From contig LCDA01000003.1 in assembly GCA_000998275.1 (NCBI GenBank), positions 1,596-65,595 of the forward strand: 64,000 bases of DNA, written 5' to 3'. The position numbers and the translations under genes were made by a program. Every line of letters starts with the position of its first letter. Position 1 is the first letter of the stretch. Source of the DNA: Candidatus Collierbacteria bacterium GW2011_GWA2_42_17 (GTDB lineage: Bacteria > Patescibacteriota > Microgenomatia > UBA1400 > MFAQ01). Positions 24,773 to 40,516 of the stretch are shown piece by piece. The notes beneath the pieces are model-generated. The model had not been told where the DNA came from. It ran no database searches and worked only from the letters and a program-made list of their open reading frames with translations.

Positions 24773-26029
24773 ATGATTGATGATGGTCAAATTAAAGTTG
24801 AACAAATTGCACACGAATATGAAAGTGTGTATCGGGAAAATAACTTAACCGACTCACTTGGGGATATTGTTTTTATTGCTGAAGAAGAGAGACGGAGTGC
24901 AATTGAGAGATATGGAAAACTTCCAAGTCCAAAAATAGCATCTCTAAAAGCCTATGTGGTTTATTGTATTCGAAAAAAAATAATTACCGATATTGGGGAA
25001 AAAACAATTGAAAAAGTTTCTATAGATAGTAGTAATCCTGTTTCGGCATCTTTAGCAGAATTGTTACAATCGACTCCAAAAAGTTTACTGGAGAATACAG
25101 CTGAAGAATTGTTTGTAAAATTGCCTTTTAGTGAGCGGAAAAAATATTGGAAAACTAAGGAACATTTGTTTGCAGACTTTGAGAAGAAATATTTGAAGGT
25201 GGTCGACTCGAAAAATATTATGGCAATAAAAAAAGGCTATAGAGACTTTGTTGAGTTTAATTTAATAAATGACAAAATTCCTAAGAAAGCCTTTCAGTTT
25301 TTTTTGGCCAATTTAGATAAATACATTGAGTATTGTAACGAGCAAGTGAAAGAAATTGTGGTAAAGAAAGATGAATTTTTTAGTGAGTATTCTTCGGCAC
25401 CTTGTTATATTTGTGCTCAGGAATTTTTGAAAGTTAACTCCGCAGATGAACTATTGGAGTTGATGGCTGTTGATTATCCAGTGTTGAGAAAGAACAAAAA
25501 GAAAATACAAGTTTCTTTGGGAGATGGAGCAGCGACGAAGTATATAACGGAGACAGATTCTTTTTTGGTGACAGTTCGAAAGAAGGTTAATTCAAGGCAT
25601 CAAATTTTGGATTTAATACATGAATTCAGTCATGTAATTTTAATGATGGAGGGCATGAATAAAGGTGCTGATTATTTAGGACAGGGAAGATATCTTCAGG
25701 AAAAGAGTGTGTCGGAAATTGTGTTGAGATTATTGAAAAAATATTCTCTAAAAGTCTACAAGGCATATTTGGGAAACAAACTGATTGATTTACAGATTGC
25801 TCTGTTTGAGTTGGAAGTTTACCGTAATACCCAAAAAAAATTACCGGAGCTGAGTGCGGAGATTTTTAACAAGTGTTTTCTTGGTGCTAACCAAGAGGAA
25901 AACCCCCTATTTATGCTGAATACTTACCTACTATTTGGACCCCTAAAATCTTTATTGTATGCGGTTGTGGATGTCGAAACAGTAATGTCCTCAGCCAACA
26001 AATTGGCACCTCTAGCGCTGAAAGTATAG
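24773..26029 (+). CDS. Hypothetical protein with HExxH motif (possible zincin-like metallopeptidase)
   Basis: 418 aa. DLIHEFSHVILMMEG contains HEFSH with a downstream Glu-rich segment. Ends at TAG 26027-26029, with an in-frame open continuation (see findings). Confidence 0.5.
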   Translation: MIDDGQIKVEQIAHEYESVYRENNLTDSLGDIVFIAEEERRSAIERYGKLPSPKIASLKAYVVYCIRKKIITDIGEKTIEKVSIDSSNPVSASLAELLQSTPKSLLENTAEELFVKLPFSERKKYWKTKEHLFADFEKKYLKVVDSKNIMAIKKGYRDFVEFNLINDKIPKKAFQFFLANLDKYIEYCNEQVKEIVVKKDEFFSEYSSAPCYICAQEFLKVNSADELLELMAVDYPVLRKNKKKIQVSLGDGAATKYITETDSFLVTVRKKVNSRHQILDLIHEFSHVILMMEGMNKGADYLGQGRYLQEKSVSEIVLRLLKKYSLKVYKAYLGNKLIDLQIALFELEVYRNTQKKLPELSAEIFNKCFLGANQEENPLFMLNTYLLFGPLKSLLYAVVDVETVMSSANKLAPLALKV

Positions 26030-26290: not shown

Positions 26291-27127
26291 TTGAGGGGGA
26301 ATATACCTAATAATGGAGGGATAGTTTCCAAGAATGAATTTATGAGATTTGCCACATATACAAAGACGGCGGTGTTGGGGTTTTTACAGGTAGCCAATTA
26401 CCGGACTGAGGTATGGTTTCAGGTGTTTGCAAAGATATTGGTTTTTGCCGGAATCGTTTTGTTTTGGAGTGTGGTGGGCACCGGTAATACAGGGCAGACA
26501 TATTATCAGCTGATTGCGTATTTTTTGGTGGCCAATGGAGCACGAGAGCTCATTGATGCATTGTACGGAAAGTTTGGTAGTACGATAATTGATGATATAA
26601 AAGATGGAAAGATTAGTTCTTATTTGTTGCAACCAACACACACCGTAATTTTTATGTACTTTAAACATTTTGGGACAAGAGGTGTAACAATTGTTTTTTC
26701 TATTTTATATATTATCGTGGGAATTGTTCTGGCACCACCAACTTCTCTCGTGGCAGGACTATTATTTTTGGTAGTTGTCGGGTCGGGAGCGATAATTTGT
26801 TTTTCTCAGAGTACGATTGTTGGCTGCGGTGCTTTTTGGATGACTGAGGCTAAGGGAATTAAAAATGTGGTGAACCATATTTCTAAAGTATTTAGTGGAG
26901 CTATGATTCCTTTGACGTTTTTTCCAATTGCCTATCAAACATCGGTGATGCTTTCGCCATTTGCTTCTTACGCTTATCTTCCGGCAACGTTGATGCAAAC
27001 TAAAACTGTTGACTCGTTTGTTTTTTTACAAGTGGGAGTGTCAATTGGTTGGGCAGTGATTTTGCTGTTTTTGAGCAGGCTGGTTTGGAGAAAGGGGGTA
27101 AAACGATATGAAGCGATTGGAATTTAA
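26291..27127 (+). CDS. ABC-2 family transporter permease
   Basis: Six-TM profile and the conserved pattern of ABC-2 (DUF990-type) permeases. TTG start with a GGAG 11 nt upstream; an alternative ATG at 26342. Confidence 0.65.
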   Translation: MRGNIPNNGGIVSKNEFMRFATYTKTAVLGFLQVANYRTEVWFQVFAKILVFAGIVLFWSVVGTGNTGQTYYQLIAYFLVANGARELIDALYGKFGSTIIDDIKDGKISSYLLQPTHTVIFMYFKHFGTRGVTIVFSILYIIVGIVLAPPTSLVAGLLFLVVVGSGAIICFSQSTIVGCGAFWMTEAKGIKNVVNHISKVFSGAMIPLTFFPIAYQTSVMLSPFASYAYLPATLMQTKTVDSFVFLQVGVSIGWAVILLFLSRLVWRKGVKRYEAIGI

Positions 27128-27938
27128 GAAGAGTATAAAACTTCGTTGGAAGATTATTTCTTCTTGTACGATGTTTGGTTTTAAAGAGTCGATGGCTTAT
27201 TCACTAAATAACTGGGGTAATTTATTGTCGATGATCGTTTACATGATTACCTATTTGATTTTCTTAGATGTACTTTTTGGAAGGGTGAAGATGATTGCAG
27301 GTTATGGTTATACGGAAATGCTCTTCTTTACCCTGATTGTTCAAATTAATTACTATCTATTATTTATTATTACTCAAGTTAACACAGAAAGACTTGATAC
27401 CAGTATTAACACCGGTGAGTTAGATCTGTGGCTTGTCAAGCCGGTGCCAGCGTTGTGGTTTGTGTCTTTCAGAAAGATTAATTTGGGTGAGCTATTATTT
27501 GGTGCTTTTCCGGCGACGATTCCATTGTTGGTAATATTGTCCGGAAAATGGAGCGTGTTAAATATGTCATTTGGGGGAGTAATGGCCGGGATTATTTTTA
27601 TCATTTTGGGTCAGATTATCATCCATTGTTTTGTATTTATGATTGCAATGACGGCCTTTTTTACAGGAGAGGGGAAACATGCAAGAAACGTTGGGGTGGA
27701 GCTTTCGATATTTGGAGACTCAATTCCCCTTGAAGGATATCCAAAGTTTTTGAAATATATTGGACTTACAATTGTTCCCTTTTTGGTACATACGGCTTTG
27801 GCAGTATCATTTTTCTTGGGTAAAAACACCAACTATTATTATCTTGTCTATGTCTTTGGTTTGGCAGTATTTTTCTTGTGGTTGAAAACGGTCGCTTGGA
27901 AATTTTCTTTAAAACATTATTCATCAGCATCATCATAA
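27108..27938 (+). CDS. ABC-2 family transporter permease (second subunit)
   Basis: Paralogous polytopic protein. GGGGG SD 8 nt upstream. Overlaps the previous gene by 20 nt. Confidence 0.65.
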   Translation: MKRLEFKKSIKLRWKIISSCTMFGFKESMAYSLNNWGNLLSMIVYMITYLIFLDVLFGRVKMIAGYGYTEMLFFTLIVQINYYLLFIITQVNTERLDTSINTGELDLWLVKPVPALWFVSFRKINLGELLFGAFPATIPLLVILSGKWSVLNMSFGGVMAGIIFIILGQIIIHCFVFMIAMTAFFTGEGKHARNVGVELSIFGDSIPLEGYPKFLKYIGLTIVPFLVHTALAVSFFLGKNTNYYYLVYVFGLAVFFLWLKTVAWKFSLKHYSSASS

Positions 27939-27943
27939 AAAAT

Positions 27944-28909
27944 ATGGAAAAAATAATTGAGGTAAAAAACCTCTCCAAAAAATTTAAGGTACCGGTTAAA
28001 CAGGGATTTGTCCGCAGTATTTTTATTCCGAAAAATAAAGAAATCGTGGCGGTGGATAATATTTCTTTTACGGTCGAGAGAGGGGAAGCGGTGGCCTTTC
28101 TCGGTCCTAATGGTGCCGGGAAAACGACAACCTTGAAAATGCTTACCGGACTGCTGTATCCAACAAGCGGGTCAGTGAAAGTATTGGAAACGATTCCTGT
28201 GGAGAGAAAATACACTTTTTTAAGAAAGATTGCCTTGGTTATGGGTAACAAGAGTGGTTTGTCGTGGGACCTGTCGGCGAGGCAGAGCTTTGACTTATTT
28301 GAGAGTATCTATGACCTTGATCATCAAGAGGCGATGAAAACGGTGGGCTACTTGGCGGAAATTTTAGAGGTATCTAAAAGTTTGGATTTACCGATTCGGA
28401 AGTTGTCACTGGGACAGAGACTAAAAATGGAGCTGATTGGGGCGATCCTGCATAGTCCGGAGATTGTATTTTTGGATGAGCCCACACTAGGACTGGATGT
28501 GGTGGCCAAGAGAAATATTCGAGAGTTTTTGAGAAAAACTAATAAAGAAAAAGGGACAACAATAATATTGACCAGTCATGATATGGCAGATATTGAAAAA
28601 GTGTGCAATCGGGTCATCGTGATTAACCACGGAAAAATTATGTTTGATGATGCGATTGGGAAACTAACAGGGAGATATAGGGGGAGGAAATATTTGACCT
28701 TGATTTTTACGGAGGAAGTCGCGCAGGAAGAGGTAGAAAAGTACGGTAAGGTGATTGATAAAAAGCCACTAACCTATACCATTGAAGTGGCAGGTGACGA
28801 ACAGGCAAAAGTAATTGCAGCAGTGAGCGAGAACCTACCTATTGATGATATTGATATTACCCATGTGCCATTGGACGAAATCATGGCGGATATGTTCGGG
28901 AAGAGGTAA
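27944..28909 (+). CDS. ABC transporter ATP-binding protein
   Basis: Walker A GPNGAGKTTT, signature LSLGQRLKM, Walker B IVFLDEP, H-loop TSHDM. Start taken at MEKIIEVKNLSKKF. Confidence 0.9.
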   Translation: MEKIIEVKNLSKKFKVPVKQGFVRSIFIPKNKEIVAVDNISFTVERGEAVAFLGPNGAGKTTTLKMLTGLLYPTSGSVKVLETIPVERKYTFLRKIALVMGNKSGLSWDLSARQSFDLFESIYDLDHQEAMKTVGYLAEILEVSKSLDLPIRKLSLGQRLKMELIGAILHSPEIVFLDEPTLGLDVVAKRNIREFLRKTNKEKGTTIILTSHDMADIEKVCNRVIVINHGKIMFDDAIGKLTGRYRGRKYLTLIFTEEVAQEEVEKYGKVIDKKPLTYTIEVAGDEQAKVIAAVSENLPIDDIDITHVPLDEIMADMFGKR

Positions 28910-28918
28910 AATTCTGAC

Positions 28919-29692
28919 ATGAGTATTTTTCGATTGAGTATAGTTTTGGGAACTGAAGAAGTGGTGGAGAAAGAACTTTTGTCAAAGTTTCCGAAAGCGG
29001 AAATTGTAGGAAGAACAAAGGGAAAAATAGATTTTCAGGTGGAGGGGAGGGTGCTAGGTGACTTTTCATCGCTGCTTTCGCCTCTTAGAATCCAAGATAC
29101 AAATCGTGGTGACGAGGATTTGTATAAGAGAGGATGGAGGAAAGCGTTTGTACCAGCTGGGATAAATCCTTCTTTGGCCTATGTACTTTGTGATTTGGCT
29201 GAGTTGAATGAAGATGATGTTGTGCTAGATCCATTTTGCGGTGGATCAACTATTCCAATCACAGCCGTTATGTATTTTGGGATTAAGAAAGCGTTTGCTT
29301 CGGATATAAGTGGAAAGGCAGTTGATATTAGCCTTGAAAATTGGAAAGCTTCAGGTGTAAAAAAAGACAAATTTGTTTTGTTTAGAAGTAATGTGTCGAC
29401 ATTGAAGTTGTCACCAAAATCAATCACGAAGGTAATTACCAATATGCCTTTTGGAATTCGGGTTGGGAATCATGAGATGAATAAAAAGCTGTATCGGAAT
29501 TTTGCGTTTAAGTTGAATAGATTGTTGAAAGATGATGGGTCTGCGATTGTGTTGACTCAAGAAAAAGAACTATTTGAGGAAGTGATGAAAAATGATTTTG
29601 AGGTAAGTGTAGAAATGACGCCGGAAGTGGGAGGATTGAGGCCAAATGTATATAAAGTTACTCGAAAAAGTGTAAAATACTTCGTAAAATGA
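28919..29692 (+). CDS. THUMP-domain SAM-dependent RNA methyltransferase (UPF0020 / N2-guanine or N6-adenine family)
   Basis: Motif I VLDPFCGGSTI and motif IV NMPFG (a D/N-PP-F/Y variant). N-terminal THUMP-like region. Confidence 0.7.
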   Translation: MSIFRLSIVLGTEEVVEKELLSKFPKAEIVGRTKGKIDFQVEGRVLGDFSSLLSPLRIQDTNRGDEDLYKRGWRKAFVPAGINPSLAYVLCDLAELNEDDVVLDPFCGGSTIPITAVMYFGIKKAFASDISGKAVDISLENWKASGVKKDKFVLFRSNVSTLKLSPKSITKVITNMPFGIRVGNHEMNKKLYRNFAFKLNRLLKDDGSAIVLTQEKELFEEVMKNDFEVSVEMTPEVGGLRPNVYKVTRKSVKYFVK

Positions 29693-30408
29693 AAACTAAT
29701 AGAATAAAAAGTTCCGTTAACATATCTAAAAAACAATTTAATCCAAATTATCTTCTTGTTGCAATCCCTTCTCGAGGAATGGTCAGTTGTGAGTTTGTAT
29801 CTTCTTTGTTGGCACAAGGTGACCCACTAAATATGTCTATTTCGTATCGTTTTGAAGTTGGCGGAGAAGTAGGGGAATCTCGAAACCGATTGGTTGGACA
29901 CGCACTAAAGATTGGAGCAGAGTATATATTGTTTATTGATGATGATGTAATATTGCCAACGAACTGTTTCAATAAACTTGTTTATTGGGCAAAAAAGGGA
30001 CATGATGTTGTCTCTGGGGTGTATTACAGTAAACAGGTTCCTCCTCAGCCCCTTATTTTTAAAGGTAGAGGCAATGGATATTTAAGTGACTGGAAGGTGG
30101 GTGACATTATCGAAGATGCTGATGGAATTGGAATGGGGATCACACTAATTAAAACAAGTGTTTTTAGAAATATCTCAAAACCATGGTTTAAATCGGTCGT
30201 TAATCAAAAAGAAAAAAATAGAGAAGAATTTATTTCTGTTGATGAGTCACTTTACTTTTGTGATAAGCTCGAGCTGAACGGAATTAAAATATTAATTGAC
30301 ACTTCGATTCAAGGAATTCATTTTGATTCAAATTCAAAAACCTTTTTCTTTAATAGTAATGGTGAACCCGTTGTTGTAAGAGATAATAAAGTAATAAATA
30401 ATATTTAG
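29689..30408 (+). CDS. GT-A fold glycosyltransferase-like protein
   Basis: LLVAIPSRG..., ILFIDDDVILP (DxD), no TM segments. ATGA overlap with the upstream methyltransferase. Confidence 0.45.
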   Translation: MKTNRIKSSVNISKKQFNPNYLLVAIPSRGMVSCEFVSSLLAQGDPLNMSISYRFEVGGEVGESRNRLVGHALKIGAEYILFIDDDVILPTNCFNKLVYWAKKGHDVVSGVYYSKQVPPQPLIFKGRGNGYLSDWKVGDIIEDADGIGMGITLIKTSVFRNISKPWFKSVVNQKEKNREEFISVDESLYFCDKLELNGIKILIDTSIQGIHFDSNSKTFFFNSNGEPVVVRDNKVINNI

Positions 30409-30411
30409 ATC

Positions 30412-31545
30412 ATGTCAATTCATAATTATCTTCCAAACAATATTAGTATCATAGAGAACGATAGGACAACTATTGAGATTGGTAATGTTTCGACGAGGCT
30501 ACTTCAGGAAATAAATTTGTCTGCGTCTAAAAAAATGATTGAGATTTTTTCTCCATCTGGGGTTTTTGGGGTTATTGCTTCTAAACAAAATCCAAAATTG
30601 GAGATATGTGAATTTGTAACTAATATACAAGATAAAAAAACTGTTTCCAAGATTTTTGACATAAATGGTATAAAAAATGGTTGCGTTTTTCCGATAACTG
30701 ACTTGTTTGCATATAAGAATGAGGTTGATGTTGTAGTAATCAGAACAGTATTGGAAAAACGAAAATCTTTGATTATCAAATCAGCTACTTTTGCAGCCTC
30801 TCTACTAAAGGGGAATGGGCAACTCTTTCTTGTGGGTGCTAAAAATGAGGGGGTTCAATCTATTGCAAAACAATTGTCAAAAATATTTTTGATTAATTCG
30901 GAAACAGTACAGTATAAACAAGGGGTTCACTTAATTAAATTTAGTTTCCCCTTAGGTTTTAAAAGAAAAATCGACGGGGAAGAGGAAGATGATGTCCAGG
31001 AATACGATATCAATGGCGTTTCTTTAAAACTAATTACTGACGAAAATGTGTTTGCAAAAGGGAAGCTCGATTCAGCAACAAAACTATTACTGGAAAATCT
31101 GATAATAAATGATAGCGATAAAATCTTAGATTTGGGGTGTGGGTCGGGTGTTATTGGATTATTCGCTTCGAAAAAAGCGAAAGATGTAAGGGTGACCCTT
31201 GTTGATGATGACTATATCTCTATTAAAACTGCTGAAAGAAATTTGATTCTAAATAAGGTTAATAACTACCAATTATTTGTTAGTGATGGGCTGAGTGAAA
31301 TGAAAGAAGGGTTGTTTAATTGTATTATTTCAAACCCACCATTTCATCAGGGAAGAGAAATATCTCATTTAGTCGCCGAGCGATTTATTAGAGAAAGCTA
31401 TAAGTATCTGCTTCCCGGAGGGAAATTGTATATAGTTTGTAATATATTTTTAGCTTACGAGAAAATTTTCAAAGAGATATATAATGATTCGAAGATTATC
31501 GCCAAAAATAAATCCTTCAAAGTGATTCTGGGTGTCAAGAAATAA
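30412..31545 (+). CDS. RsmC/RlmG-like two-domain rRNA (guanine-N2) methyltransferase
   Basis: C-terminal active domain with ILDLGCGSGVIG (motif I) and NPPFH (motif IV). N-terminal degenerate MTase-like domain. The length of 377 aa matches RlmG. Confidence 0.65.
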   Translation: MSIHNYLPNNISIIENDRTTIEIGNVSTRLLQEINLSASKKMIEIFSPSGVFGVIASKQNPKLEICEFVTNIQDKKTVSKIFDINGIKNGCVFPITDLFAYKNEVDVVVIRTVLEKRKSLIIKSATFAASLLKGNGQLFLVGAKNEGVQSIAKQLSKIFLINSETVQYKQGVHLIKFSFPLGFKRKIDGEEEDDVQEYDINGVSLKLITDENVFAKGKLDSATKLLLENLIINDSDKILDLGCGSGVIGLFASKKAKDVRVTLVDDDYISIKTAERNLILNKVNNYQLFVSDGLSEMKEGLFNCIISNPPFHQGREISHLVAERFIRESYKYLLPGGKLYIVCNIFLAYEKIFKEIYNDSKIIAKNKSFKVILGVKK

Positions 31546-31822
31546 GCAATGTTTTTGGAATTAAATTCAAGTAGTATCTTTTTATTTCCTCAATAACGTC
31601 AGATATGGGGTATCCCAGGGCATTTTCAATTTCTTTTTGTAATTGATTATTATCTATAGTTTTGTGATGATTTAATAAAACAAATCCTGTTATTTTGTCC
31701 AAGAAAAAGAACCTCATAGCCTTGACGGAATAGAAGCAGTATCCGTGCCCTTCGATCCTATAAAGTAATTTTCCTTCAGATGTTCGTAATGAAAATAAAT
31801 TATTTTTCATTTTCTTGAGCAT
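31535..31822 (-). CDS. PqqD-like small protein (possible RiPP recognition element) coupled to the radical SAM gene
   Basis: 95 aa. YSVKAMRFFFLDKITGF ... ISDVIEEIKRYYLNL resembles the YxLNetAaxIWellDG ... DVxxFlxeL pattern of PqqD/RRE proteins. Its start overlaps the end of the rSAM gene by 23 nt. Confidence 0.4.
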   Translation of the reverse strand: MLKKMKNNLFSLRTSEGKLLYRIEGHGYCFYSVKAMRFFFLDKITGFVLLNHHKTIDNNQLQKEIENALGYPISDVIEEIKRYYLNLIPKTLLIS

Positions 31823-32897
31823 AAAAACAATGAGTATCTGATGCGTTTATCTTGTTTGAATCATAATATGCGGCAGCTCTGCATCCACCACCACACCACT
31901 TATTTTTGCATGTCGAACAAGGACCAATTAATGATTTTTTTGATAGATTTCTAAATTCTGCAAAGAGCTTGGAAGATTTCCAAATATTGCTAAATTCATT
32001 CTTCCTCACATTACCGGCACTCATTGTCGGGTTAGAGACAAACATTTCACAAGGATAGACGGAACCGTCTTCCCCAATTGAGCAAACAGAAATTCCAGCC
32101 ACACAGGATATATCAGAGCGATTCTTTGTATTTTGTTCCCAAACATCTTTCAGTAGATTTAGCTTGTTGAGTTTTTTTAATGGATAATAGTATTCCCAAA
32201 ATACTGGACCTTCATTGGTGACATTTAGGTTTATTTTTGGAAATTTGTTTGTATTTTGATAATTGATTAGGTCGTTTACAAACTTTATGTACCTTTTTCT
32301 TTCAGGTATGAAATCCATATTTTTTGATAGTCTTCCTGCAGGGCATAATACCTGTATCCCAACAATATCGATATCCATTGGCCTGACTAAATCGATTGTG
32401 TCAAAAACACAATCGATATTGTAAGAGTTTAAAGTTAGACCAATTGCTGTGTTTAACTTGTGTTTCTTAAGTAGTTTAATTGCTTTGAGTGCTTTTTCAA
32501 AAGATTGTCCACCCTTAATTTTGTCATGTAATTCAGCATTGTTAGCCTCTAAAGATACGGTAATCAGCTCAAAGTTGCATTTAGAAAGCTTAATACAAAT
32601 TTCTTCAGTTAAAAAATACCCCGTCGTATTTAACGATAGGGAAAAATCATATTTCTTTGTTATTGAAAGAATATCTAAAAAATCACTTCTCATTAACGGT
32701 TCGCCGCCTGCAAGTTGAACACGAAAAACGCCAATTTTTTGAAACTCAGAAAATAACTTGTCAAGTTCATCAATGGTTAACTCTTTGGAAGTGTTAGTAG
32801 CTTCATTTGCTGAGGCATAACAATACTTACAATTTAGGTGACATCGATTAGTCAAATTCAAATCAACTCTCAAGGGAGCCGATAAAAAATCTCTCAT
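31800..32897 (-). CDS. Radical SAM enzyme with C-terminal SPASM domain (peptide/protein-modifying maturase type)
   Basis: CHLNCKYC (CxxxCxxC), GGEPLM. C-terminal Cys clusters CVAGISVCSIGEDGSVYPC and CSTCKNKWCGGGCRAAAY typical of SPASM auxiliary Fe-S sites. Confidence 0.9.
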   Translation of the reverse strand: MRDFLSAPLRVDLNLTNRCHLNCKYCYASANEATNTSKELTIDELDKLFSEFQKIGVFRVQLAGGEPLMRSDFLDILSITKKYDFSLSLNTTGYFLTEEICIKLSKCNFELITVSLEANNAELHDKIKGGQSFEKALKAIKLLKKHKLNTAIGLTLNSYNIDCVFDTIDLVRPMDIDIVGIQVLCPAGRLSKNMDFIPERKRYIKFVNDLINYQNTNKFPKINLNVTNEGPVFWEYYYPLKKLNKLNLLKDVWEQNTKNRSDISCVAGISVCSIGEDGSVYPCEMFVSNPTMSAGNVRKNEFSNIWKSSKLFAEFRNLSKKSLIGPCSTCKNKWCGGGCRAAAYYDSNKINASDTHCFYAQENEK

Positions 32898-33129
32898 TAT
32901 TTGTGAATTATATCTGATTACGCAGCTCTGCCCCAGGTTTTATAGATGACTACCTTAGGATTAAGCCTATTTTTTAAATCTGATATAACTTTTTGTATTC
33001 TTTTCTTACTCAATTGACTCACCCCCAATCATGTTTAGTGATAATGTACTAATAATAACATCTGTGTTTCTGGTTAGTGAGCGCAGTTTATTCTTAACGA
33101 TACACAAACAAGGAATTTTTTTGAAGTGA

Positions 33130-33903
33130 TTATATTTTTTGTGCGATAACACCGATGATGGGATCGTTATTTTTGAATGAGACAATGCCATGTTTGTTAT
33201 CATAAGAACCATACATCAATTTAGTGCGTAAACCGAAACTTTCAATAAGTTTGGTTACTTGGTCTAGCGTGTATAGATACATTTTGTTATTGCTGGTATT
33301 TTTATCAAGTTTCCCATCGATGATGACCGACTGATTTATTTCAAGAGTTTGGTCCTGCTTGTTTAGTTTTTGTTTTGTCCTTCTAGATAGACGATGTAGT
33401 TTATCTGACTTAAATTCTTTTTCAATAAAATACTTATTATCAAATTCAAAAGTTTTGACATTTTCAAAGTTTATGACGTCGAAACATATTATTCCATCGC
33501 TTTTTATTGAATCAATCATATTTTTGATTACTATGGAAAAGTCATGATAATTAATATCACCAATCACATTGTAAAGGCAAATTGCTGCATCAAATTTTTC
33601 TGTAATTACATCTCTAATGTCGGACAATATGAGGTTTGGTTTAAGCTTATTTTTTATAATTTTTCTCTTTGCAATTTTTAGCATGTCAGCACTTATATCG
33701 ATTCCTAATAAATCAAAACCTTGTTTGGCAAGAGGAATATAAAAATTACCAGTACCACACCCGAGGTCGACTATGGTTTTGACATTATTTTTTCTAAATA
33801 TTTTTGTTAGTGTGTCTGCTATCGCATCGTATGGTATTCCATCAGCATCAATTTGATCGTAATATTTTGCATTGTATTTGTACCAATTAAAGTTTTTATT
33901 CAT
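33130..33903 (-). CDS. Class I SAM-dependent methyltransferase
   Basis: IVDLGCGTGNF (motif I), DLLGIDIS, LYNVIGDINY. Length 257 aa. Confidence 0.8.
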   Translation of the reverse strand: MNKNFNWYKYNAKYYDQIDADGIPYDAIADTLTKIFRKNNVKTIVDLGCGTGNFYIPLAKQGFDLLGIDISADMLKIAKRKIIKNKLKPNLILSDIRDVITEKFDAAICLYNVIGDINYHDFSIVIKNMIDSIKSDGIICFDVINFENVKTFEFDNKYFIEKEFKSDKLHRLSRRTKQKLNKQDQTLEINQSVIIDGKLDKNTSNNKMYLYTLDQVTKLIESFGLRTKLMYGSYDNKHGIVSFKNNDPIIGVIAQKI

Positions 33904-34017
33904 GTAATTTATTGAATGATTGTGACACGACTTGTTTCAAGAGGTGGTGGCTAGTTTTGTTATTATGTGACAATTATAGATTGTGTTGTGTGAGAATTGA
34001 TAAGGTTGGAGAAGCAT

Positions 34018-34041
34018 TGGAGAGTATCTGTCTAGATAGAT
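34018..34041. promoter_or_regulatory. Near-perfect 24-bp palindrome in the divergent methyltransferase/GNAT promoter region
   Basis: GAGTATCT-gtctagat-AGATACTC (8-bp perfect arms around a TCTAGA core), 27 nt upstream of the GNAT ATG. Confidence 0.35.
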
Positions 34042-34067
34042 ACTCCTTTGTATTATAAAATGCAGAG

Positions 34068-34526
34068 ATGATTATCAGAAATGCGAGGATTGAAGATGTT
34101 TCTCGATTGAGAGAAGTTAAACCTGTTTTAGATATTGAGAAAATAAATAGACGGCTTGAGGAACAAGATGGGGGTAGGGCGAATTTTTTGATTGTGGAAG
34201 AAAATGGTGAAATAGTAAGTTTTGTTTACTTGAAGTTTTTTGGAAGCGATATTCATCCGGACTATCCAGATATTGAGGACCTTTTCACCAAAGAAAGTGA
34301 GAGAGGGAGGGGTTTTGCATCTATGTTAATTAGAGAGTGTGAAAAATTGGCAAAAGAGAGAGGTTTTAAAAAGATAGGGTTGGCCGTAAATCCCGATCTT
34401 AATAATTCTGCAAGAAAATTATACGAATATTTAGGTTTTCATAATGTCGGAGAGAAACCTTATGTTGATGCAGTTTACGACGGAGTAAAAGACTGGTGCA
34501 TCGATATGGTAAAAAGATTGAGTTGA
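34068..34526 (+). CDS. GNAT family N-acetyltransferase
   Basis: FLIVEENGEIVSFVYL, motif A RGRGFASMLIRECEKLAKERGFKKIGLAV, YEYLGF. Confidence 0.85.
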   Translation: MIIRNARIEDVSRLREVKPVLDIEKINRRLEEQDGGRANFLIVEENGEIVSFVYLKFFGSDIHPDYPDIEDLFTKESERGRGFASMLIRECEKLAKERGFKKIGLAVNPDLNNSARKLYEYLGFHNVGEKPYVDAVYDGVKDWCIDMVKRLS

Positions 34527-34612
34527 TGAGTGAAGAACTATACCGACGATGATGTCGAAATTACGTATGTTCAATTGGACGAGATTGTGGCGGATATGTT
34601 CGGGAAGAGGTA
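34527..34612 (+). pseudogene. Remnant of an ABC ATPase 3' end (duplicate of the end of the gene at 27944-28909)
   Basis: Encodes VKNYTDDDVEITYVQLDEIVADMFGKR*, versus the ATPase C-terminus ...DDIDITHVPLDEIMADMFGKR*. The DNA is near-identical over ggcggatatgttcgggaagaggtaaaatt, including the downstream spacer up to the next ATG. Confidence 0.6.
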
Positions 34613-34641
34613 AAATTATTTCATGAAAGGGGGTGAGTTCG

Positions 34642-34749
34642 GATGAATGAAGTTGAAACAATAAAAAAAGCTGAAGAAATAGATATTGAAGAGGTGATAA
34701 ATCAAGAAAAAACCAAAAAAGAAGTGATTTTTATGGAGGCAGAGTGTAA
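34642..34749 (+). CDS. Small acidic peptide ORF (35 aa), candidate precursor or leader peptide
   Basis: MNEVETIKKAEEIDIEEVINQEKNQKRSDFYGGRV. GGGGGTG SD 10 nt upstream. Lies between the ABC-fragment remnant and the Asn-synthetase-like gene. Confidence 0.35.
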
Positions 34750-34811
34750 TAGAAAAAGTAGTCGTTATCCCGAAGGACGACGACCTCATTATTAATAGCG
34801 AAATATGAATT

Positions 34812-36395
34812 ATGGTTTTTCCTAAAATAACCATCAAAAAGATTGCTGGTGGACTGGGTTTGGAGGTGGTTTGGCCTGAAAGGGAGCTGCCTGAAAAAGT
34901 AGTTTATGAAGATGACGATTACAAAGCCTGGGGGTATCAGGTTGATTACGATGGGGTATCCTTTGAGGAAAAAGTGAAGTTGATGATAGCCGGGAAAGAG
35001 AAAGAGATTGTTTTGATCGACGGAGATTTGTTAATGGTACTTTGGAATAAAAAGAAAAATGAGGTGAAGGCAATGGTGGGTATGTCGGGTATGTTTCCAT
35101 TATATTTTGCCAGAGAAGGTGACGTGTTTTACCTTTCTCCGGATTTTTACGAGGTTTTTAAAGAAATAAAAAAACCAAAGATTAATAAAGATGAAGTATT
35201 GGATTATCTTTTGCAAGAATATTTTATTTATCAGACGGATAAAACTTTTATTGATGGCGTTTCCAGATTACCTGCCGGGTGTTTGCTGACCATAACGAGT
35301 GATTTGAAATATCAGGCTGAAGAATTGGTTGATCTTAAAGAAATAATTGCAAATCCCGGAAAGGATCTGAGTGCCGTTGAAGCCACAAAAGAAATTGAAA
35401 ATACTTTAACGACAGCGATCAAGAAGAGGTTGGAATATTTTAAAGACAAACCACTCGTTTGTGATTTTTCGAGCGGGTTTGATTGCATGATGGTAGGTTA
35501 TCTGATGAAAAATTTGGGGGCGGATTTTACCGGGTATAGTTGGTATACAAAAGAAAACAATGATGACAGCGATCCGAGTATCGTGGCAAAATGGTCGGAG
35601 GTCAATGGAGTAAACTGCAAATTTTCTGACGTAACAAATATTTTATTTTTTCATGATGAGGCAGACTTGAAATGGAATGCGACTCATTTTTTCCCCGCCT
35701 GGCACTCATTATCACTGGCTTTGGCTAACGAGAAAGATAAAGTAAAATTGTTTGGGAAAAACGTGGTGACTTTTACAGGTGAAGGGGGAGATGAATTTTT
35801 ACACGCGAGTGACCTTTTGGGGTATTTGAACGACATTAATAAGAATGAACATGAATTTATCAAGGAATATGCCGAGGGAGGTGCCGAAAGTATTTATACA
35901 AAAACGGCCTATGATCGATTGGTGAGTGAGGATAGAGCAAACTCTACAAAGTTTTATGGTAATAGATATGGTTCGGCGGTTGGGGAACAGTGCTATTTTG
36001 CAATTTATTGGGAAACGGGAACATGGATGAGCAATCCTTATGATACCTTACCAATGCTAAAGCTTTCCCAAAGACTGCCAAAAGACGAAAGGGGAAATAC
36101 AATCAACAAGCAGAAAATATATTTTGGAAATACAAAAGCTTTCATTCCAGAGCAGTATCGGGTGAAACTGCCCTATCATGAACAAGTTTATCGATTCTTG
36201 GATGAGAAAAAAGATATTTTGATTAATATTTTAGAAAACTCGGTACTGGGGAAATTGGGGATTGTTCAGTCAGAAGAGTTACTGAAGGCCTTACGCGAGG
36301 GGAGTATTAAAGGGGTAGTTAAAGAACACTATCTTTGTTTTGGAAATTTATGTCGTTTGGAAGTGTTTTTGCAGGCAAATGGGGTAAGAGGATGA
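34812..36395 (+). CDS. Asparagine-synthetase-family protein lacking the N-terminal catalytic Cys (lasso-cyclase-like or amidotransferase-like)
   Basis: 527 aa. N-terminus MVFPK (no Cys2), so no glutaminase activity. The central region LVCDFSSGFDCMMVGYLM is a degenerate PP-loop (SGGxDS). Overall Asn_synthase domain organisation. Confidence 0.6.
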   Translation: MVFPKITIKKIAGGLGLEVVWPERELPEKVVYEDDDYKAWGYQVDYDGVSFEEKVKLMIAGKEKEIVLIDGDLLMVLWNKKKNEVKAMVGMSGMFPLYFAREGDVFYLSPDFYEVFKEIKKPKINKDEVLDYLLQEYFIYQTDKTFIDGVSRLPAGCLLTITSDLKYQAEELVDLKEIIANPGKDLSAVEATKEIENTLTTAIKKRLEYFKDKPLVCDFSSGFDCMMVGYLMKNLGADFTGYSWYTKENNDDSDPSIVAKWSEVNGVNCKFSDVTNILFFHDEADLKWNATHFFPAWHSLSLALANEKDKVKLFGKNVVTFTGEGGDEFLHASDLLGYLNDINKNEHEFIKEYAEGGAESIYTKTAYDRLVSEDRANSTKFYGNRYGSAVGEQCYFAIYWETGTWMSNPYDTLPMLKLSQRLPKDERGNTINKQKIYFGNTKAFIPEQYRVKLPYHEQVYRFLDEKKDILINILENSVLGKLGIVQSEELLKALREGSIKGVVKEHYLCFGNLCRLEVFLQANGVRG

Positions 36396-36826
36396 TTAAT
36401 TTTTTTGATGACGTACTTTGTATCGTTTATCGCGTATAGATACCCAGTTTTTTGACCACTAATTATTTTTGCGAGGGGTGCGTGTTCGCCAAGGAGAATA
36501 ATATCGTCGATTTTTTTACCACCTAAGCCTTCAGGAACAATAAGAAAGTTATTTCTTTGTTTACTATCGACATTTTCAGTTTCGACGAACGAACCAATTG
36601 TTGCATAATCTACTGATTTGGTCTGATGATTTACGTTTATTTTAATAGCTAATAGCTCTGCTTTGTTTTTTTGGAGAGCTTGAACAAGTTGATCTGCGTG
36701 TTGTCTTGTTTGATCGTGTTGTGATTCCATGGGGGTGGCGGCTTCATCTCTTTGTTTTTTGGCGTTATCGATGGCTTTGTTAATCGATTCGATTTCTTGG
36801 TTAATAATATTTTCGATACTTATCAT
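36329..36826 (-). CDS. Hypothetical protein (166 aa from the internal ATG)
   Basis: The track ORF extends to 37000, but its first 58 codons are an lpxC 3' remnant. The likely real start is MISIENIINQ. 67-bp convergent overlap with the preceding gene. Confidence 0.35.
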   Translation of the reverse strand: MISIENIINQEIESINKAIDNAKKQRDEAATPMESQHDQTRQHADQLVQALQKNKAELLAIKINVNHQTKSVDYATIGSFVETENVDSKQRNNFLIVPEGLGGKKIDDIILLGEHAPLAKIISGQKTGYLYAINDTKYVIKKINHPLTPFACKNTSKRHKFPKQR

Positions 36827-37000
36827 AGGCGAAATTATATACTTTAAAACTTGCGGAATTTTATGACTCAGAGTATTCCGATTTACAAAAGATAATTGAC
36901 GGATGTGTTTAGGGGAAAGTGACCTAAGATTTTTGAAGTGGAGACGGTAACCAACTAGGGCGAGATCACCAATTATATCGGGGAGTTTGTGAGAGGGCAC
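36827..37000 (-). pseudogene. Remnant of an lpxC 3' end fused in-frame to the downstream ORF
   Basis: Encodes HKLPDIIGDLALVGYRLHFK...HIRQLSF, versus the LpxC C-terminus RHKLLDLIGDLALIGFHLQAK...KIRQSLF at 40690-40800. About 70% DNA identity. Confidence 0.5.
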
Positions 37001-37234
37001 CTTGAATGGAAGTCGTAGTTATAGATTGAGTTGACATGGTATTATTTATGTGTGCTGGAAAATGATAATTCGTGCGCTAGTTGCGAGAATAATTGTTGTA
37101 AAAAATTTAGACTATATCAGTCGGGAGTTGTAGAGACTATCCAAACGACAGACCACCATTTTGTGAAAAAACCGGAGTAAAAAATAGACCAGCGGCAAAC
37201 TGTAAATTAAACGATTTAGTTAAAAAAGAAAAAA

Positions 37235-38392
37235 ATGACTAATAACAGATTAAAGGTAATGGTTGTTTATGGCGGAGTAAGTCCGGAACATGAGGTAGCA
37301 ATTGTGACTGCCTTACAGGTAATGAACGCTTTGGAAGAGGCAGATTTTGAAGTTTTACCGATATATATTTCCAAGGAAGGAAACTGGTATATGGGGGATA
37401 GTAGCTTCTTGAAACCGGAAGCATACAAAGATTTACGATCATTGTTAAAAAAAGGTAAACAGGTGATTTGGTCGGCAGATCCAAATTTTGGATTGCTTGA
37501 GAAAAGTTGGTGGGGTTTTGTAGCGACAGGGAAACAGCCAGACGTGGTGTTTCCGGTGATTCATGGTCGTGGGGGTGAAGATGGGACCTTGCAGGGATTA
37601 CTTGAAATGGCCGGTACTCCTTATGTTGGATGTTCGGTAACAGCGAGTGCGGTCAAAATTGATAAGTATATCGCGAAAAAGATTGCACAAGCCTGTGGAT
37701 TGGAAGTATTGAAAGACAGATTGGTGATTAAGGGTGAAAAGATAAGTGCAACTGAAAAGGAGGCGATTAAATATCCGGTGATGGTAAAACCAGTCGGTTT
37801 GGGGTCAAGTATTGGTCTGACGAAGGTGAAAAATAAGAGGGATTTAGATGATGCCTTGGAGTTGGCTTTTTGCTACGACAGACGGGTAATTGTTGAAGAG
37901 GCGCTAGATGATTTCTCCGAGGTAAATATTTCTGTATTGGGAAATAATCCTTATGAAGTGTCGGTAACTGAGGAGCCAAAATCCAGCGGAGAGATGTTGA
38001 GTTTTGAAGATAAGTATGAGAGGCAGGAGAAGTCTAGAGGAATGGCAGGATCAAAAAGATCGATTCCGGCAAAACAAAAATTAGAGGTAATCAAAAAAAT
38101 TGAAAAAGGGGCGATAGATTTTTTCAGGTCGATTGGAGGAAAGGGAATCGCAAGGGTTGATTTTATGGTAGATAAGAAAGGAAAGGTTTATTTTAATGAG
38201 ATAAATACAATGCCTGGTTCTTTAGCGTTTTATCTTTGGGAAGCAAGTGGTTTGTCGTTTAAAAAGTTGGTGGGGAGGTTGGTTGATTTAGCTTTAGAAG
38301 AAGGTAAGGAAAAAGATTCATTAATTAAGACTTTTGAGAGTAATATTCTGACAGGTTTTTCTCGCAACGGTCTTAAGGGAAGCAAGTTTTAA
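37235..38392 (+). CDS. ddl: D-alanine--D-alanine ligase
   Basis: VMVVYGGVSPEHEVAIVTA, HGRGGEDGTLQGLLEMAGTPYVG, ATP-grasp region, EINTMPG. Confidence 0.9.
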   Translation: MTNNRLKVMVVYGGVSPEHEVAIVTALQVMNALEEADFEVLPIYISKEGNWYMGDSSFLKPEAYKDLRSLLKKGKQVIWSADPNFGLLEKSWWGFVATGKQPDVVFPVIHGRGGEDGTLQGLLEMAGTPYVGCSVTASAVKIDKYIAKKIAQACGLEVLKDRLVIKGEKISATEKEAIKYPVMVKPVGLGSSIGLTKVKNKRDLDDALELAFCYDRRVIVEEALDDFSEVNISVLGNNPYEVSVTEEPKSSGEMLSFEDKYERQEKSRGMAGSKRSIPAKQKLEVIKKIEKGAIDFFRSIGGKGIARVDFMVDKKGKVYFNEINTMPGSLAFYLWEASGLSFKKLVGRLVDLALEEGKEKDSLIKTFESNILTGFSRNGLKGSKF

Positions 38393-39861
38393 CAGTTGTC
38401 GGGGAGGTCGTTTTCCAGAAGTATCCAGTCGTATTTTTTTGAAAGGTCTTGAATGATTGGCCAAAGATTGGTGGCATTGTTGAGGTAGCTTATTTTTTGT
38501 GTATTTCCAACGCCAATCTCAAAATTTTTTGTTCTTTCTGATTGTCCGACGAGGATGATATGGTCGAAGACTGGGGCAGCTAACTGTCCCAGTTTTTGGT
38601 GTACACTAGCCATTTTTGGACCAAGTTCAATTATCCCGGGTGTGAGAAGGACTTTCTTACCCTTAAGATTTTTAAGATCGTTGAGAATGGCGGTAAACCC
38701 TTCTTCGTTTGAACTAAAGGCGTTGTCTATAAGGGTGGCCCGGTTTATCCTTTTAAGGTCAAGCCGATGGGGTGAGGGTTTGAGAGAGGCGACAGACCCC
38801 TTTATTTTTTCCAGGGGTACTTTTAGAAGGAGACTCATAGAAATTGCGGCAACAAGATTATAGAGATTGCTGGTGCCGAAAAGAGGTGAGACGAAGTCGA
38901 GGGGTTTCCCCCGATAGACAAGGCGGAATCGGATACCTTTTGGGGTGAGGGTATATTTTTCGACGAAAAAATCAGCTTTGGGGTCGGTAAGAGAGTAAGT
39001 TTTTACTTTTCGGTATTGAGGAAGAGTGAGATGAGCTTTGATCAAGGGATTGTCAAGATTGACTAGGGCATTCTGGGGTTGGACAACATCAACTAGCTCA
39101 AACTTAGCCAGGGTGGTATTTTCTAGGGTTTTAAAGCGTTCTAGGTGTTGAGAACCGACTGAGGTGAGGATGGCATACTGGGGATCAACCATGTGGCAGA
39201 TTTCTGCGATTTCTCCACGAGTATATGCGCCCATTTCGCAAATGAAGCGACGTGTTTTTTGAAATATTTCCATTTTTACAACTTTGGCGATGCCAAAGAT
39301 GGTGTTGTAGCTTTCCGGGGTTTTAACGGTTTGTTGATAACTGGTGAGAATGGAGTAAAGAAAATCTTTGACTGAGGTCTTGCCGAAAGAACCGGTGACG
39401 CCAATAACGCTTAAGTGGTGGTAACTACGAATAAGGGTATTTATTTGTTTAATCGTTTTTTTACGATTGATTTTTTCATAAGGAGTAATGAGGGTGATTG
39501 CAAGAAAAAGATAGAGATAGGGGGTGAAGAAAAAAGAGAGCATCAGGATGATGGTGAGGGGGATCTGTTTTAGAACTAGCAAAAAAAGAAAGAGTGCGGC
39601 AAAAGAAGTGTAAGACAGTAGGGTGAGAAGGCGGGCCTTAGGAGTAAGATCCAGGGGTTTTTTTGAAGAAATAGTAAAAGTGACAGGATGAGAAAGCCAC
39701 CAAGTAAAAAAGCGAGTGACGGAGTAGCCTTCCTGTTGAAAAATGGTGAGGTGAGTTTTAAATGGTTTGATGAACATGGTTTTCGATAATGGTGTTAAGA
39801 AGAAAAATAAACTTCGGGAAAAAGGTAACGTGTGGACTATGGTCCGCTCCGTAAAGTACAT
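38389..39861 (-). CDS. murF: UDP-N-acetylmuramoyl-tripeptide--D-alanyl-D-alanine ligase (Mur ligase; MurF by context)
   Basis: VIGVTGSFGKTSVKDF (Mur ligase P-loop), central and C-terminal Mur ligase domains, N-terminal hydrophobic extension. The start is uncertain because it overlaps the next gene. Confidence 0.75.
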   Translation of the reverse strand: MYFTERTIVHTLPFSRSLFFFLTPLSKTMFIKPFKTHLTIFQQEGYSVTRFFTWWLSHPVTFTISSKKPLDLTPKARLLTLLSYTSFAALFLFLLVLKQIPLTIILMLSFFFTPYLYLFLAITLITPYEKINRKKTIKQINTLIRSYHHLSVIGVTGSFGKTSVKDFLYSILTSYQQTVKTPESYNTIFGIAKVVKMEIFQKTRRFICEMGAYTRGEIAEICHMVDPQYAILTSVGSQHLERFKTLENTTLAKFELVDVVQPQNALVNLDNPLIKAHLTLPQYRKVKTYSLTDPKADFFVEKYTLTPKGIRFRLVYRGKPLDFVSPLFGTSNLYNLVAAISMSLLLKVPLEKIKGSVASLKPSPHRLDLKRINRATLIDNAFSSNEEGFTAILNDLKNLKGKKVLLTPGIIELGPKMASVHQKLGQLAAPVFDHIILVGQSERTKNFEIGVGNTQKISYLNNATNLWPIIQDLSKKYDWILLENDLPDNC

Positions 39862-40516
39862 GGAGATGGGAATTGGGAATTTTTGCGGCGAGTAACTTAC
39901 CGGAGTAAGGAATGGTGGTGTCTTTTTCGCCCCAGATAATGGAGGTGGGGATAGAAATATCTTTTATTTTTGAGGAGTAGTCTTGGTAGAGAATTTTGTT
40001 TAGGATCTCTCTTTGGGTAGGGGTGGATTTGAGATAGTTCTCCGAGGCAATCCTTTTAAAGATATGGTCGTAGAGCCCGGGTGTGAGAACTTTCAGAAGA
40101 GGTTTGGCGGCTTTAGCCAGTTGTGATTTTTTGCCCGGGTGTAACTTACGGATACAAGCAGGTGAGACAAGAATGAGGTGGCTGATCAATTTGGGAAAGC
40201 GGAGGGAAAAGTCAACGGCGATCTGTCCGCCGAAAGAGTGGCCAAGAAGAGTGACATTTTTAAGTTTTTGTTTGTCGATGAAACTTTTGACAAAGTTGGA
40301 GTATTCGGGTACACCGGGGTTGTTCGGAAGAGGTTGGGTTCCACCAAAAGAGGGAAGGTCCAGGGCGATGCCGGTAATTCCAGGCGGGAGGTTGTCTAAA
40401 GTATTTTGCCAATTTAGGGAAGACTGTCCCCAGCCATGCAGTATCAGAAGAGTGTGTTTTTCTTGTGGGTGGACAATCTGGTAGTTCGTAAGAATGTCGT
40501 TGATGACCTTTTGCAT
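39758..40516 (-). CDS. Alpha/beta hydrolase fold protein
   Basis: HGWGQS (oxyanion), GHSFGG nucleophile elbow, and a C-terminal His. Confidence 0.75.
   Translation of the reverse strand: MQKVINDILTNYQIVHPQEKHTLLILHGWGQSSLNWQNTLDNLPPGITGIALDLPSFGGTQPLPNNPGVPEYSNFVKSFIDKQKLKNVTLLGHSFGGQIAVDFSLRFPKLISHLILVSPACIRKLHPGKKSQLAKAAKPLLKVLTPGLYDHIFKRIASENYLKSTPTQREILNKILYQDYSSKIKDISIPTSIIWGEKDTTIPYSGKLLAAKIPNSHLHVLYGADHSPHVTFFPKFIFLLNTIIENHVHQTI

Follow-up and report, generated by a model that had tools for sequence, protein, structure and literature searches.

The 64,000-nt stretch of DNA analyzed here (positions 1,596 to 65,595 of contig LCDA01000003.1 of Candidatus Collierbacteria bacterium GW2011_GWA2_42_17; hereafter, the window) raises the question of whether a group of genes around a radical S-adenosylmethionine (rSAM)/SPASM enzyme gene forms a peptide biosynthetic locus and, if so, of which class. 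In a first-pass annotation of the window, the region 28919-37000 was described as a single mosaic cassette, possibly a locus for peptides made by the ribosome and modified after translation (RiPPs), and its class was left open. The RiPP-like reading was supported by the present analysis, in which the rSAM gene and its partner were recognized as a peptide-modification system, and the class could be identified as tryglysin/WPR-like. A biosynthetic cluster for a radical SAM RiPP (RaS-RiPP), built like wgkABC and wprABC, is quite likely formed by the block 28919-34526, probably with the neighboring ABC-2 transporter. The cluster probably makes a Trp-Arg cyclophane peptide and would be a variant of the tryglysin/WPR-like type, not a member of it by the curated models. 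It is compact and well delimited and has a three-gene core. Bacteria of the Candidate Phyla Radiation (CPR), with their very small genomes, are regarded as producing hardly any specialized metabolites; no paper describing such a cluster type was found in the literature.

Core genes of the cluster

The three core genes all lie on the minus strand, in the tryglysin-like order of precursor (33013-32918), rSAM enzyme (32897-31800) and partner (31822-31535):

32918-33013, minus strand: predicted precursor peptide gene, 31 amino acids (aa), MSKKRIQKVISDLKNRLNPKVVIYKTWGRAA, located 20 nt upstream of the rSAM gene
31800-32897, minus strand: predicted rSAM/SPASM peptide maturase, WgkB-like, 365 aa (Pfam Radical_SAM PF04055, E 8e-30; SPASM PF13186, E 2.4e-12)
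31535-31822, minus strand: partner, a putative chaperone of the RiPP recognition element (RRE) type (WgkC/PqqD-like), 95 aa, or 91 aa from the ATG at 31810, overlapping the rSAM stop

The trio of precursor, rSAM enzyme and partner recurs in eight distinct Patescibacteria loci and is accompanied by a dedicated GT-A glycosyltransferase and up to three methyltransferases.

Precursor peptide

The statement of the first-pass annotation that no canonical precursor was present proved wrong: one of the tiny open reading frames (ORFs) in the 230-bp gap upstream of the rSAM gene is the precursor ORF. Its start is the TTG at 33013, which is preceded by GGGGGTGAG; an alternative TTG at 33028 would give a peptide of 36 aa (ORF 32918-33028). 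The precursor is present in a single copy in the window. Its leader contains DLKxRLNPK, the conserved form of which is DLKxKLNPK, and its core ends in K-T-W-G-R-A-A.

For the comparison, DNA around rSAM homologues was fetched (loci L006, L008, L009, L176, L010, L014 and L175), and the upstream region was translated. An equivalent ORF was found directly upstream of the rSAM gene in all seven of these CPR relatives, with its stop within a few tens of bases of the rSAM start. In the five closest loci, including the window (rSAM enzymes 64-71% identical), the precursors end in ...KTWGRAA, ...KTWKRAA or ...KTWARSA, and in the three more distant loci (rSAM enzymes 46-48% identical), they end in ...KTWPRP or ...KTWGRP, with a single W-P-R in L010 and L014. 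Seven residues (L13, L17, P19, K25, T26, W27 and R29) are invariant in the eight CPR precursors. When five of the precursor genes were compared, the differences were distributed over the three codon positions as 47/44/119, as would be expected if the gene is translated and under purifying selection. The window precursor did not match the tryglysin peptide model NF050036 and lacks the W-G-K motif. No precursor was found adjacent to the rSAM homologue of a further locus, L012.

The short spacer from the precursor stop to the rSAM ATG (32898-32917 in the window) contains a TATAAT hexamer that is conserved in four of the five loci inspected, namely the window, L006, L009 and L176. It ends approximately 7-12 nt before the ATG and could be an internal promoter for a leaderless rSAM transcript separate from that of the precursor.

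rSAM/SPASM enzyme

The top NCBIfam model for the rSAM enzyme was NF050035 (WgkB), with an end-to-end alignment scoring 338.6 bits (E 4e-101). The next-best models, AhbD (169 bits) and NirJ2, scored 157-169 bits, approximately half of the WgkB score. The comparison with SPASM families that had been proposed in the first-pass annotation therefore favors WgkB, and assignment to anSME (with a sulfatase), QhpD, MftC, the sactisynthases or the ranthipeptide enzymes was rejected because all of these models scored at most half as much. The DynA model gave approximately 95-106 bits on the relatives of the enzyme.

The rSAM motif CxxxCxxC (C19, C23 and C26) is invariant, and because it occupies residues 19-26, the enzyme has no N-terminal RRE domain. 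Seven C-terminal cysteines (C265, C283, C327, C330, C335, C339 and C357) are also invariant and form a full SPASM domain. As a calibration, Lachnospiraceae enzymes that are 38-40% identical to the window enzyme were scored on the WgkB model and reached 580-590 bits; these relatives adjoin precursors ending in ILWGKN, SCWGKH and ISWGKN. The precursors of intermediate relatives contain ...MTWGKHK... (L011) and ...CKNWAKAE (L013). Since the WGK-type, L011, L013 and CPR precursors all carry W-x-[KR] near the C-terminus, this motif is the common feature of the enzyme clade, in which the CPR branch has fixed Arg at the third motif position.

A genome scan identified one close relative, a Collierbacteria genome. 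Among the matches listed in a metagenome scan with the rSAM alignment, the relatives were at most 43% identical, and no new CPR loci were present.

Partner protein

The overlap of the rSAM stop with a 95-aa ORF, reported previously, was confirmed, and in all loci examined, the next gene after the rSAM gene encodes a protein of 91-111 aa; it often overlaps the rSAM stop. The designation of this protein as PqqD-like was not directly confirmed. The window partner had no direct match in Pfam (PqqD, PF05402) or NCBIfam (WgkC, NF050069), and the CPR-only partner profiles did not match solved RREs. Profile-profile comparison gave indirect support: hhalign aligned the CPR-only partner profile with a WgkC-like profile at 95% probability (E 2.7e-8), and a mixed partner profile matched the lasso PqqD chaperones 9x90_B (E 5e-5) and TbiB1 (E 5e-4). 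The Lachnospiraceae counterpart (L018) matches NF050069 with 98.8 bits. A search for homologues of the window partner itself found just two near-identical proteins. From these data, we infer that the partner is a leader-binding chaperone.

Comparison with known systems and proposed cross-link

The fused ring that WgkB makes in WGK links Trp to Lys, and an RRE is the product of wgkC (PMC8092268). The tryglysin clusters wgkABCD of Streptococcus ferus and S. mutans have the same order of precursor, rSAM/SPASM enzyme of approximately 365 aa without an N-terminal RRE and chaperone of approximately 100 aa, and the window shares with them a C-terminal motif beginning with Trp-Gly and an adjacent transporter gene. 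The differences are as follows. Tryglysin has Lys at the third motif position, whereas the window has Arg, and its relatives have W-K-R, W-A-R or W-P-R; the tryglysin product contains a tetrahydro[5,6]benzindole formed from Trp and Lys, and the window motif has no Lys at position 3. The window enzyme is approximately 39% identical to WGK-type enzymes and scores below the WgkB cutoff, and the tryglysin leader differs from the DLKxKLNPK type. Unlike in tryglysin clusters, no regulator family corresponding to an shp/rgg quorum-sensing pair was found among the Pfam hits of the neighboring genes. The window cluster has additional GT-A and methyltransferase genes, and its host belongs to Patescibacteria rather than Bacillota.

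WprABC of Xenorhabdus has the W-x-R motif in common with the window, and L010 and L014 have exactly W-P-R. It is likewise a three-gene system with a chaperone of approximately 100 aa without recognizable PqqD similarity. WprB links Trp-C5 to Arg-Cγ in WPR and requires WprC, a protein of approximately 100 aa without sequence similarity to PqqD (PMC11851443); in the same work, an uncharacterized precursor family with a single WxR/K motif was noted. However, WprA has three WPR repeats and the window precursor one W-G-R motif, and WprB is of the twitch type, reported to lack the Aux I cysteines (PMC11851443), in contrast to the full SPASM domain with seven invariant C-terminal cysteines of the window enzyme. 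WprB was reported to be 28% identical to WgkB.

In the streptide system (StrABC/SuiB), an rSAM/SPASM enzyme forms a Lys-Trp macrocycle (Lys-Cβ to Trp-C7), and the CPR precursors also have an invariant Lys (K-T-W). StrB/SuiB enzymes carry an N-terminal RRE domain and act on K-x-x-x-W, whereas in the window the putative RRE is a separate protein and Lys stands two residues before Trp; streptide-type enzymes were not among the top family matches of the window enzyme. In the triceptides (made by 3-CyFE enzymes) and in darobactin (DarE), an rSAM/SPASM enzyme likewise joins an aromatic residue at position 1 to a side chain at position 3 of an aromatic-X-X motif, but these enzymes belong to different subfamilies, and their precursors usually have several motifs.

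In the mechanism proposed here, the partner would bind the conserved leader (DLKxKLNPK) in the manner of an RRE, and the rSAM enzyme would join Trp through a carbon-carbon bond to the Arg at the third position of the invariant W-x-R motif, giving a three-residue cyclophane. The Trp-Arg cross-link is proposed by analogy with the action of WgkB on W-G-K and of WprB on W-P-R. The peptide would then be tailored by the GT-A protein and the N-methyltransferases or, in the more distant subgroup, by a GNAT acetyltransferase; the modifications could be placed on the Thr and Lys that invariably precede Trp or on the new N-terminus. The leader would be removed by a protease, and the product would be exported by the ABC-2 transporter.

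Candidate tailoring genes, transporter and co-inheritance

The following genes accompany the core:

28919-29692, plus strand: UPF0020-family N-methyltransferase, 257 aa, NMPF motif (Pfam UPF0020, E 5.6e-30, residues 71-231)
29689-30408, plus strand: GT-A-fold glycosyltransferase, 239 aa, with conserved DxD motif FIDDDV (AlphaFold2 (AF2) model, pLDDT 77; Foldseek)
30412-31545, plus strand: RsmC/RlmG-like two-domain methyltransferase, NPPF motif (Pfam MTS, E 4.9e-55; MTS_N weak, E 1e-5), convergent with the partner gene
33130-33903, minus strand: class I SAM methyltransferase (Pfam Methyltransf_25, E 1.8e-15), directly upstream of the precursor gene on the same strand
34068-34526, plus strand: GNAT acetyltransferase (Pfam Acetyltransf_1, E 3.4e-18), the last gene in the repeat-flanked block described below
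26291-28909, plus strand: ABC-2 transporter (Pfam), with ABC2_membrane_6 permeases at 26291-27127 and 27108-27938 and an ATPase from 27878 or 27944 to 28909

The earlier identification of a GNAT and a protein of GT-A fold was confirmed, as were the RsmC-like and class I methyltransferases; the THUMP domain ascribed to the remaining methyltransferase was not detected in the UPF0020 protein, with which the Trm14 models align only from approximately position 183 or 262 onward.

The GT-A protein is 71-79% identical to its counterparts in L006, L008, L009 and L176 and 53% identical to those in L014, L175 and L177, and its conservation exceeds that of the rSAM enzyme. A search of 5.8 billion proteins gave no more than 18 homologues, eight of them on contigs that match in size those with rSAM homologues, and the gene was absent from the more distant rSAM-related loci that were fetched. 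A Foldseek search with the model gave A197 of Sulfolobus turreted icosahedral virus (STIV) first (E 2.8e-12), followed by the collagen hydroxylysine galactosyltransferases. The GT-A protein shares the fold and the DxD motif with the STIV A197/collagen hydroxylysine glycosyltransferases (Foldseek, E 2.8e-12 to 1e-6; phmmer, E 4.5e-5) at an identity of 10-21%. It presumably acts on the peptide.

The methyltransferase genes also recur beside the core. The RsmC-like gene was found in the same convergent position, with 43-53% identity, in L006, L008, L009 and L176, and L012 has a shorter MTS methyltransferase (32% identical to the window protein) after the partner. The UPF0020 homologue in the L176 cluster is 75% identical, and the class I methyltransferase has a 56% identical counterpart at the same position in L176 and a 60% identical one after the GT-A gene in L008. 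In the more distant subgroup (L014 and L175), a GNAT gene replaces the RsmC-like gene right after the partner; the GNATs of these loci, and those nearby in L008 and L010, belong to other subfamilies. The rSAM homologue of L012 has, directly upstream, a transporter homologous to that of the window (ATPase 40% identical, two ABC2_membrane_6 permeases), and the ABC-2 transporter is a candidate exporter or immunity pump.

The synteny comparison suggested in the first-pass annotation showed that the gene set recurs near the rSAM gene in relatives, whereas the outer flanks differ between genomes (type II secretion/pilin genes, QueC, Mur ligases). From the recurrence of the GT-A and methyltransferase genes next to the core in genomes with different flanks, it may be concluded that the gene set moves as a unit. 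Co-inheritance, for which the first-pass annotation had suggested this check, was thus supported for the GT-A, RsmC-like, UPF0020 and class I methyltransferase genes but not for the AsnB-like gene, which recurs in L010 only.

The methyltransferases also allow another function. The RsmC-like and UPF0020 (EmtA/RlmL-like) proteins might confer self-resistance through guanine-N2 methylation of rRNA, with the ribosome as the target of the peptide. rRNA methylation is a well-established means of resistance encoded within antibiotic clusters, both genes accompany the cassette, the RsmC-like protein retains the MTS_N and MTS architecture of RsmC/RlmG, and the UPF0020 protein matches, besides a weak match to AviRa, the model of EmtA (E 6e-15), a 23S rRNA G2470 methyltransferase and evernimicin-resistance enzyme. 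However, the UPF0020 protein is without the THUMP RNA-binding part, all methyltransferase scores are far below the equivalog cutoffs (for RsmC NF007023, 140.3 bits against 295), and the GNAT in place of the RsmC-like gene in L014 and L175 fits better with capping of a peptide amine. Self-resistance is considered somewhat unlikely, though an alternative to be taken seriously, and the tailoring of the peptide is preferred.

Repeats and probable insertion of the block

Two pairs of duplicated gene ends were found:

28844-28922, plus strand: direct repeat copy A, running from the last 22-25 codons of the ABC ATPase gene over its stop and the spacer to ATGA, with which the UPF0020 gene begins
34548-34626, plus strand: direct repeat copy B, an orphan ATPase 3' end with spacer, just after the GNAT gene
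36881-36991, minus strand: diverged lpxC remnant, the last 45 codons (LpxC residues 249-293)
40690-41571, minus strand: intact lpxC, the partner of the remnant (Pfam, E 7.6e-57)

The duplication of the ATPase 3' end, for which the first-pass annotation had given somewhat different limits (28840-28920 and 34527-34620), was borne out. The copies are 79 nt long with 84% nucleotide identity, and the last 25 codons have 68% amino-acid identity; all other repeats in the 16 kb examined were at most 44 nt long. Contigs matching the window have been obtained by independent assembly of several samples, among them GCA_003512045.1 (DOTH01000013.1). Both repeat copies occur letter for letter in five independent assemblies, and the repeat is therefore not an assembly artifact, a possibility that had been raised earlier.

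The lpxC remnant is weaker than the ATPase repeat (20 of 45 residues identical, 44%; pairwise E 7e-6) but real, and the conserved HKLxDxIGDLALxG stretch is retained in it. As had been reported, the remnant is joined in frame to the start of ORF 36329-37000, although two of five annotations begin this gene downstream (165 aa), so that the remnant lies upstream of its 5' end. A weak resemblance to a GreA_GreB protein of L175 (E 6e-5) was seen in the C-terminal part of the ORF. The intact LpxC homologue adjoins Mur ligase and D-Ala-D-Ala ligase genes, in a genome of Patescibacteria, a group that is not known to make lipid A.

The two remnants do not delimit one cassette, as had been assumed; they belong to separate repeat pairs, and the lpxC pair is a rearrangement separate from the ATPase pair. 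The ATPase pair brackets 28923-34547 (approximately 5.7 kb, AT-rich), that is, the conserved RiPP gene set and the GNAT gene. The lpxC pair brackets 36992-40689, with ddl, Mur ligase and hydrolase genes. Between the two scars, outside the RiPP block, lie orf50, the AsnB-like gene and the GreA-like gene.

The G+C content of the block genes is 0.30-0.38, compared with 0.43 ± 0.04 elsewhere, and the GC skew of its minus-strand genes is near zero, compared with +0.21 ± 0.11 for other minus-strand genes. Direct repeats of the 3' end of a target gene thus flank a compositionally distinct block, as is characteristic of genomic islands. The earlier view of the remnants as a signature of insertion is in agreement with the repeats, the low G+C content and the differing flanks in relatives, which point to insertion at the ATPase 3' end: the 5.7-kb block would have been inserted there, giving the 79-bp direct repeat of that gene end. 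No recombinase or integrase family was found among the Pfam and NCBIfam hits of the block genes. Rfam and tRNA scans of the window detected nothing, and therefore there is no tRNA attachment site. A promoter/terminator scan gave no excess over shuffled sequence.

Over the whole window (1-64000), GC skew on the plus strand is strongly positive (0.24 overall) irrespective of gene orientation, with a mean of +0.28 for plus-strand genes; the minus-strand genes of the RiPP block are among the few with near-zero skew.

The orphan ATPase 3' end could also be read as the last remnant of a second ABC transporter operon, since deleted, that formerly followed the GNAT gene; as L012 has a homologous ABC-2 transporter beside its rSAM gene, the ancestral cluster could have had a transporter of its own. 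This reading is unlikely. Just the last 25 codons and the spacer remain, no other ATPase or permease fragments were detected upstream, the repeat takes in the non-coding spacer and ATGA, as expected of a duplicated junction, and the block between the copies is compositionally distinct. Insertion of the block at the ATPase 3' end is preferred.

AsnB-like gene and orf50

Two further genes lie outside the repeat-flanked block:

34643-34795, plus strand: orf50, an acidic ORF of 50 aa
34812-36395, plus strand: AsnB-like protein without Cys2, with SSGFD in place of the SGGxDS loop

The acidic ORF had been recorded as 35 aa; it is in fact 50 aa long. The description of the AsnB-like protein as lacking Cys2 was correct. 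Its matches are to Asn_synthase (E 9.5e-4, below the Pfam cutoff) and NCBIfam asn_synth_AEB (E 3.4e-12, far below cutoff). On the lasso cyclase model NF033535, it reached 30.6 bits (E 1.3e-7) against a cutoff of 525; with this score and with no B2 (transglutaminase-type) protease in the region according to Pfam, a lasso-peptide reading was rejected. Its full-length family comprises just 58 representative clusters (E ≤ 1e-10) among 1.84 billion and is narrow.

It is conceivable that the AsnB-like protein, orf50 and the GNAT act in the same pathway, for example by amidating or lactamizing the C-terminal carboxylate of the peptide, in which case the cluster would extend over 26291-36395. The absence of Cys2 and the retained SSGFD loop recall the carboxylate-adenylating lasso cyclases, the family is narrow, and in L010 a homologue (28% identical) and two GNAT genes lie approximately 5 kb from the rSAM gene. 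However, the gene is outside the repeat-flanked block, it is absent from the fetched DNA of L006, L008, L009, L014, L175 and L176, no lasso B2 protease is present, and a putative RRE of its own beside the L010 homologue points to a separate peptide system. A shared pathway is therefore doubtful. The link of the AsnB-like gene to the cassette is weak, and the gene possibly belongs to a separate peptide-modifying system.

In L010 (285-2458), the AsnB-like homologue is preceded by a 95-aa ORF (sub-threshold PqqD match, E 0.007) and, before that, by a 72-aa ORF; this locus may be a separate RRE-dependent peptide system.

Weight of the assignment

Several points weigh against a RaS-RiPP cluster that makes a Trp-Arg cyclophane. 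All cluster members are known from sequence alone, and the enzyme, precursor and partner all fail the NCBIfam models of the tryglysin system, the 338.6 bits of the enzyme being below the NF050035 cutoff of 650. The similarity of the partner to PqqD is indirect, and its single-sequence AF2 model (pLDDT 47) was discarded. The ABC transporter is adjacent in two loci only, and a leader peptidase was not identified. An empty insertion site in a relative did not turn up, although no search was aimed at one. The RsmC-like protein keeps the full two-domain architecture of an rRNA methyltransferase and may have rRNA rather than the peptide as its target. Finally, the cross-link could involve not Arg but the invariant Lys that stands two residues before Trp. 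Such a streptide-like Lys-Trp cross-link was ranked below Trp-Arg because the WGK-type and L011 precursors have no Lys before Trp, whereas W-x-[KR] is universal.

The weakest alternative, largely refuted by the comparative data and in our judgment highly improbable, is that the region is a chance mosaic of housekeeping genes (rRNA/tRNA methyltransferases, a RimI-like GNAT and a cell-wall glycosyltransferase) with an AhbD/NirJ- or anSME-type maturase and a small ORF that is not a real gene: AhbD and NirJ2 are indeed the second-best families, and several cassette genes carry housekeeping-type names, but the WgkB score is double the AhbD score, the small ORF shows protein-level conservation with third-position bias in eight loci and has its C-terminal W-x-[KR] in common with the WGK precursors of related enzymes, the gene set is constant while the flanks change, the GT-A family is tiny and confined to such loci, and there are no sulfatase or heme genes near the rSAM gene.

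If confirmed, the RaS-RiPP cluster would extend the tryglysin-type enzymes to a Trp-x-Arg substrate and would pair a full-SPASM enzyme with Arg; the only characterized Trp-Arg cross-linker was reported to be without Aux I cysteines (twitch). It would also add a dedicated GT-A glycosyltransferase family and N-methyltransferases, and the two 3'-end duplications within 12 kb would be a concrete trace of gene-block insertion in these genomes. A broader proposal, considered unlikely, is that the cassette makes the first defined class of CPR natural products, a glycosylated, N-methylated Trp-Arg cyclophane peptide, with two guanine-N2-type methyltransferases that modify the peptide or protect the ribosome, and that it spread by integrase-free 3'-end replacement. 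In the former role, the recruited methyltransferases would methylate the Arg guanidine or an amine, which would be a new tailoring chemistry.

Neighboring genes and related loci

Directly upstream of the ABC-2 transporter lies the following gene:

24773-26029, plus strand: orf418, with an HEFSH (HExxH) motif and a G+C content of 0.343, the lowest outside the cassette

The protein may be a metallopeptidase. It was considered as a leader peptidase, but it had no Pfam or NCBIfam match and no homologue in the other loci. Upstream of it is a 1229-aa ORF (20976-24665, minus strand) with unusually high G+C content (0.47) and skew (0.41), the sole family match of which is faint, to the GT-C protein AftD (E 0.015). 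In this stretch, some assemblies annotate several short genes on the same strand, and two call a 1229-aa gene on the opposite strand.

L176 is the closest relative with a long enough contig, and a second, unrelated rSAM/SPASM gene (4657-5880, minus strand, 407 aa) is present there between the GT-A and UPF0020 genes of the cassette. The distant rSAM/partner homologues of L012 (1-4537) and L013 (10910-17125) are located in larger clusters, which also encode two B12-binding radical SAM enzymes, peptidases of the M1-like and U32 types, a class I methyltransferase and a PHP-domain protein. In L175 (105-4444 and 8269-9553), three GreA_GreB-like paralogues, an S66 peptidase and a second PqqD-rSAM-SPASM fusion gene were found around the cluster.

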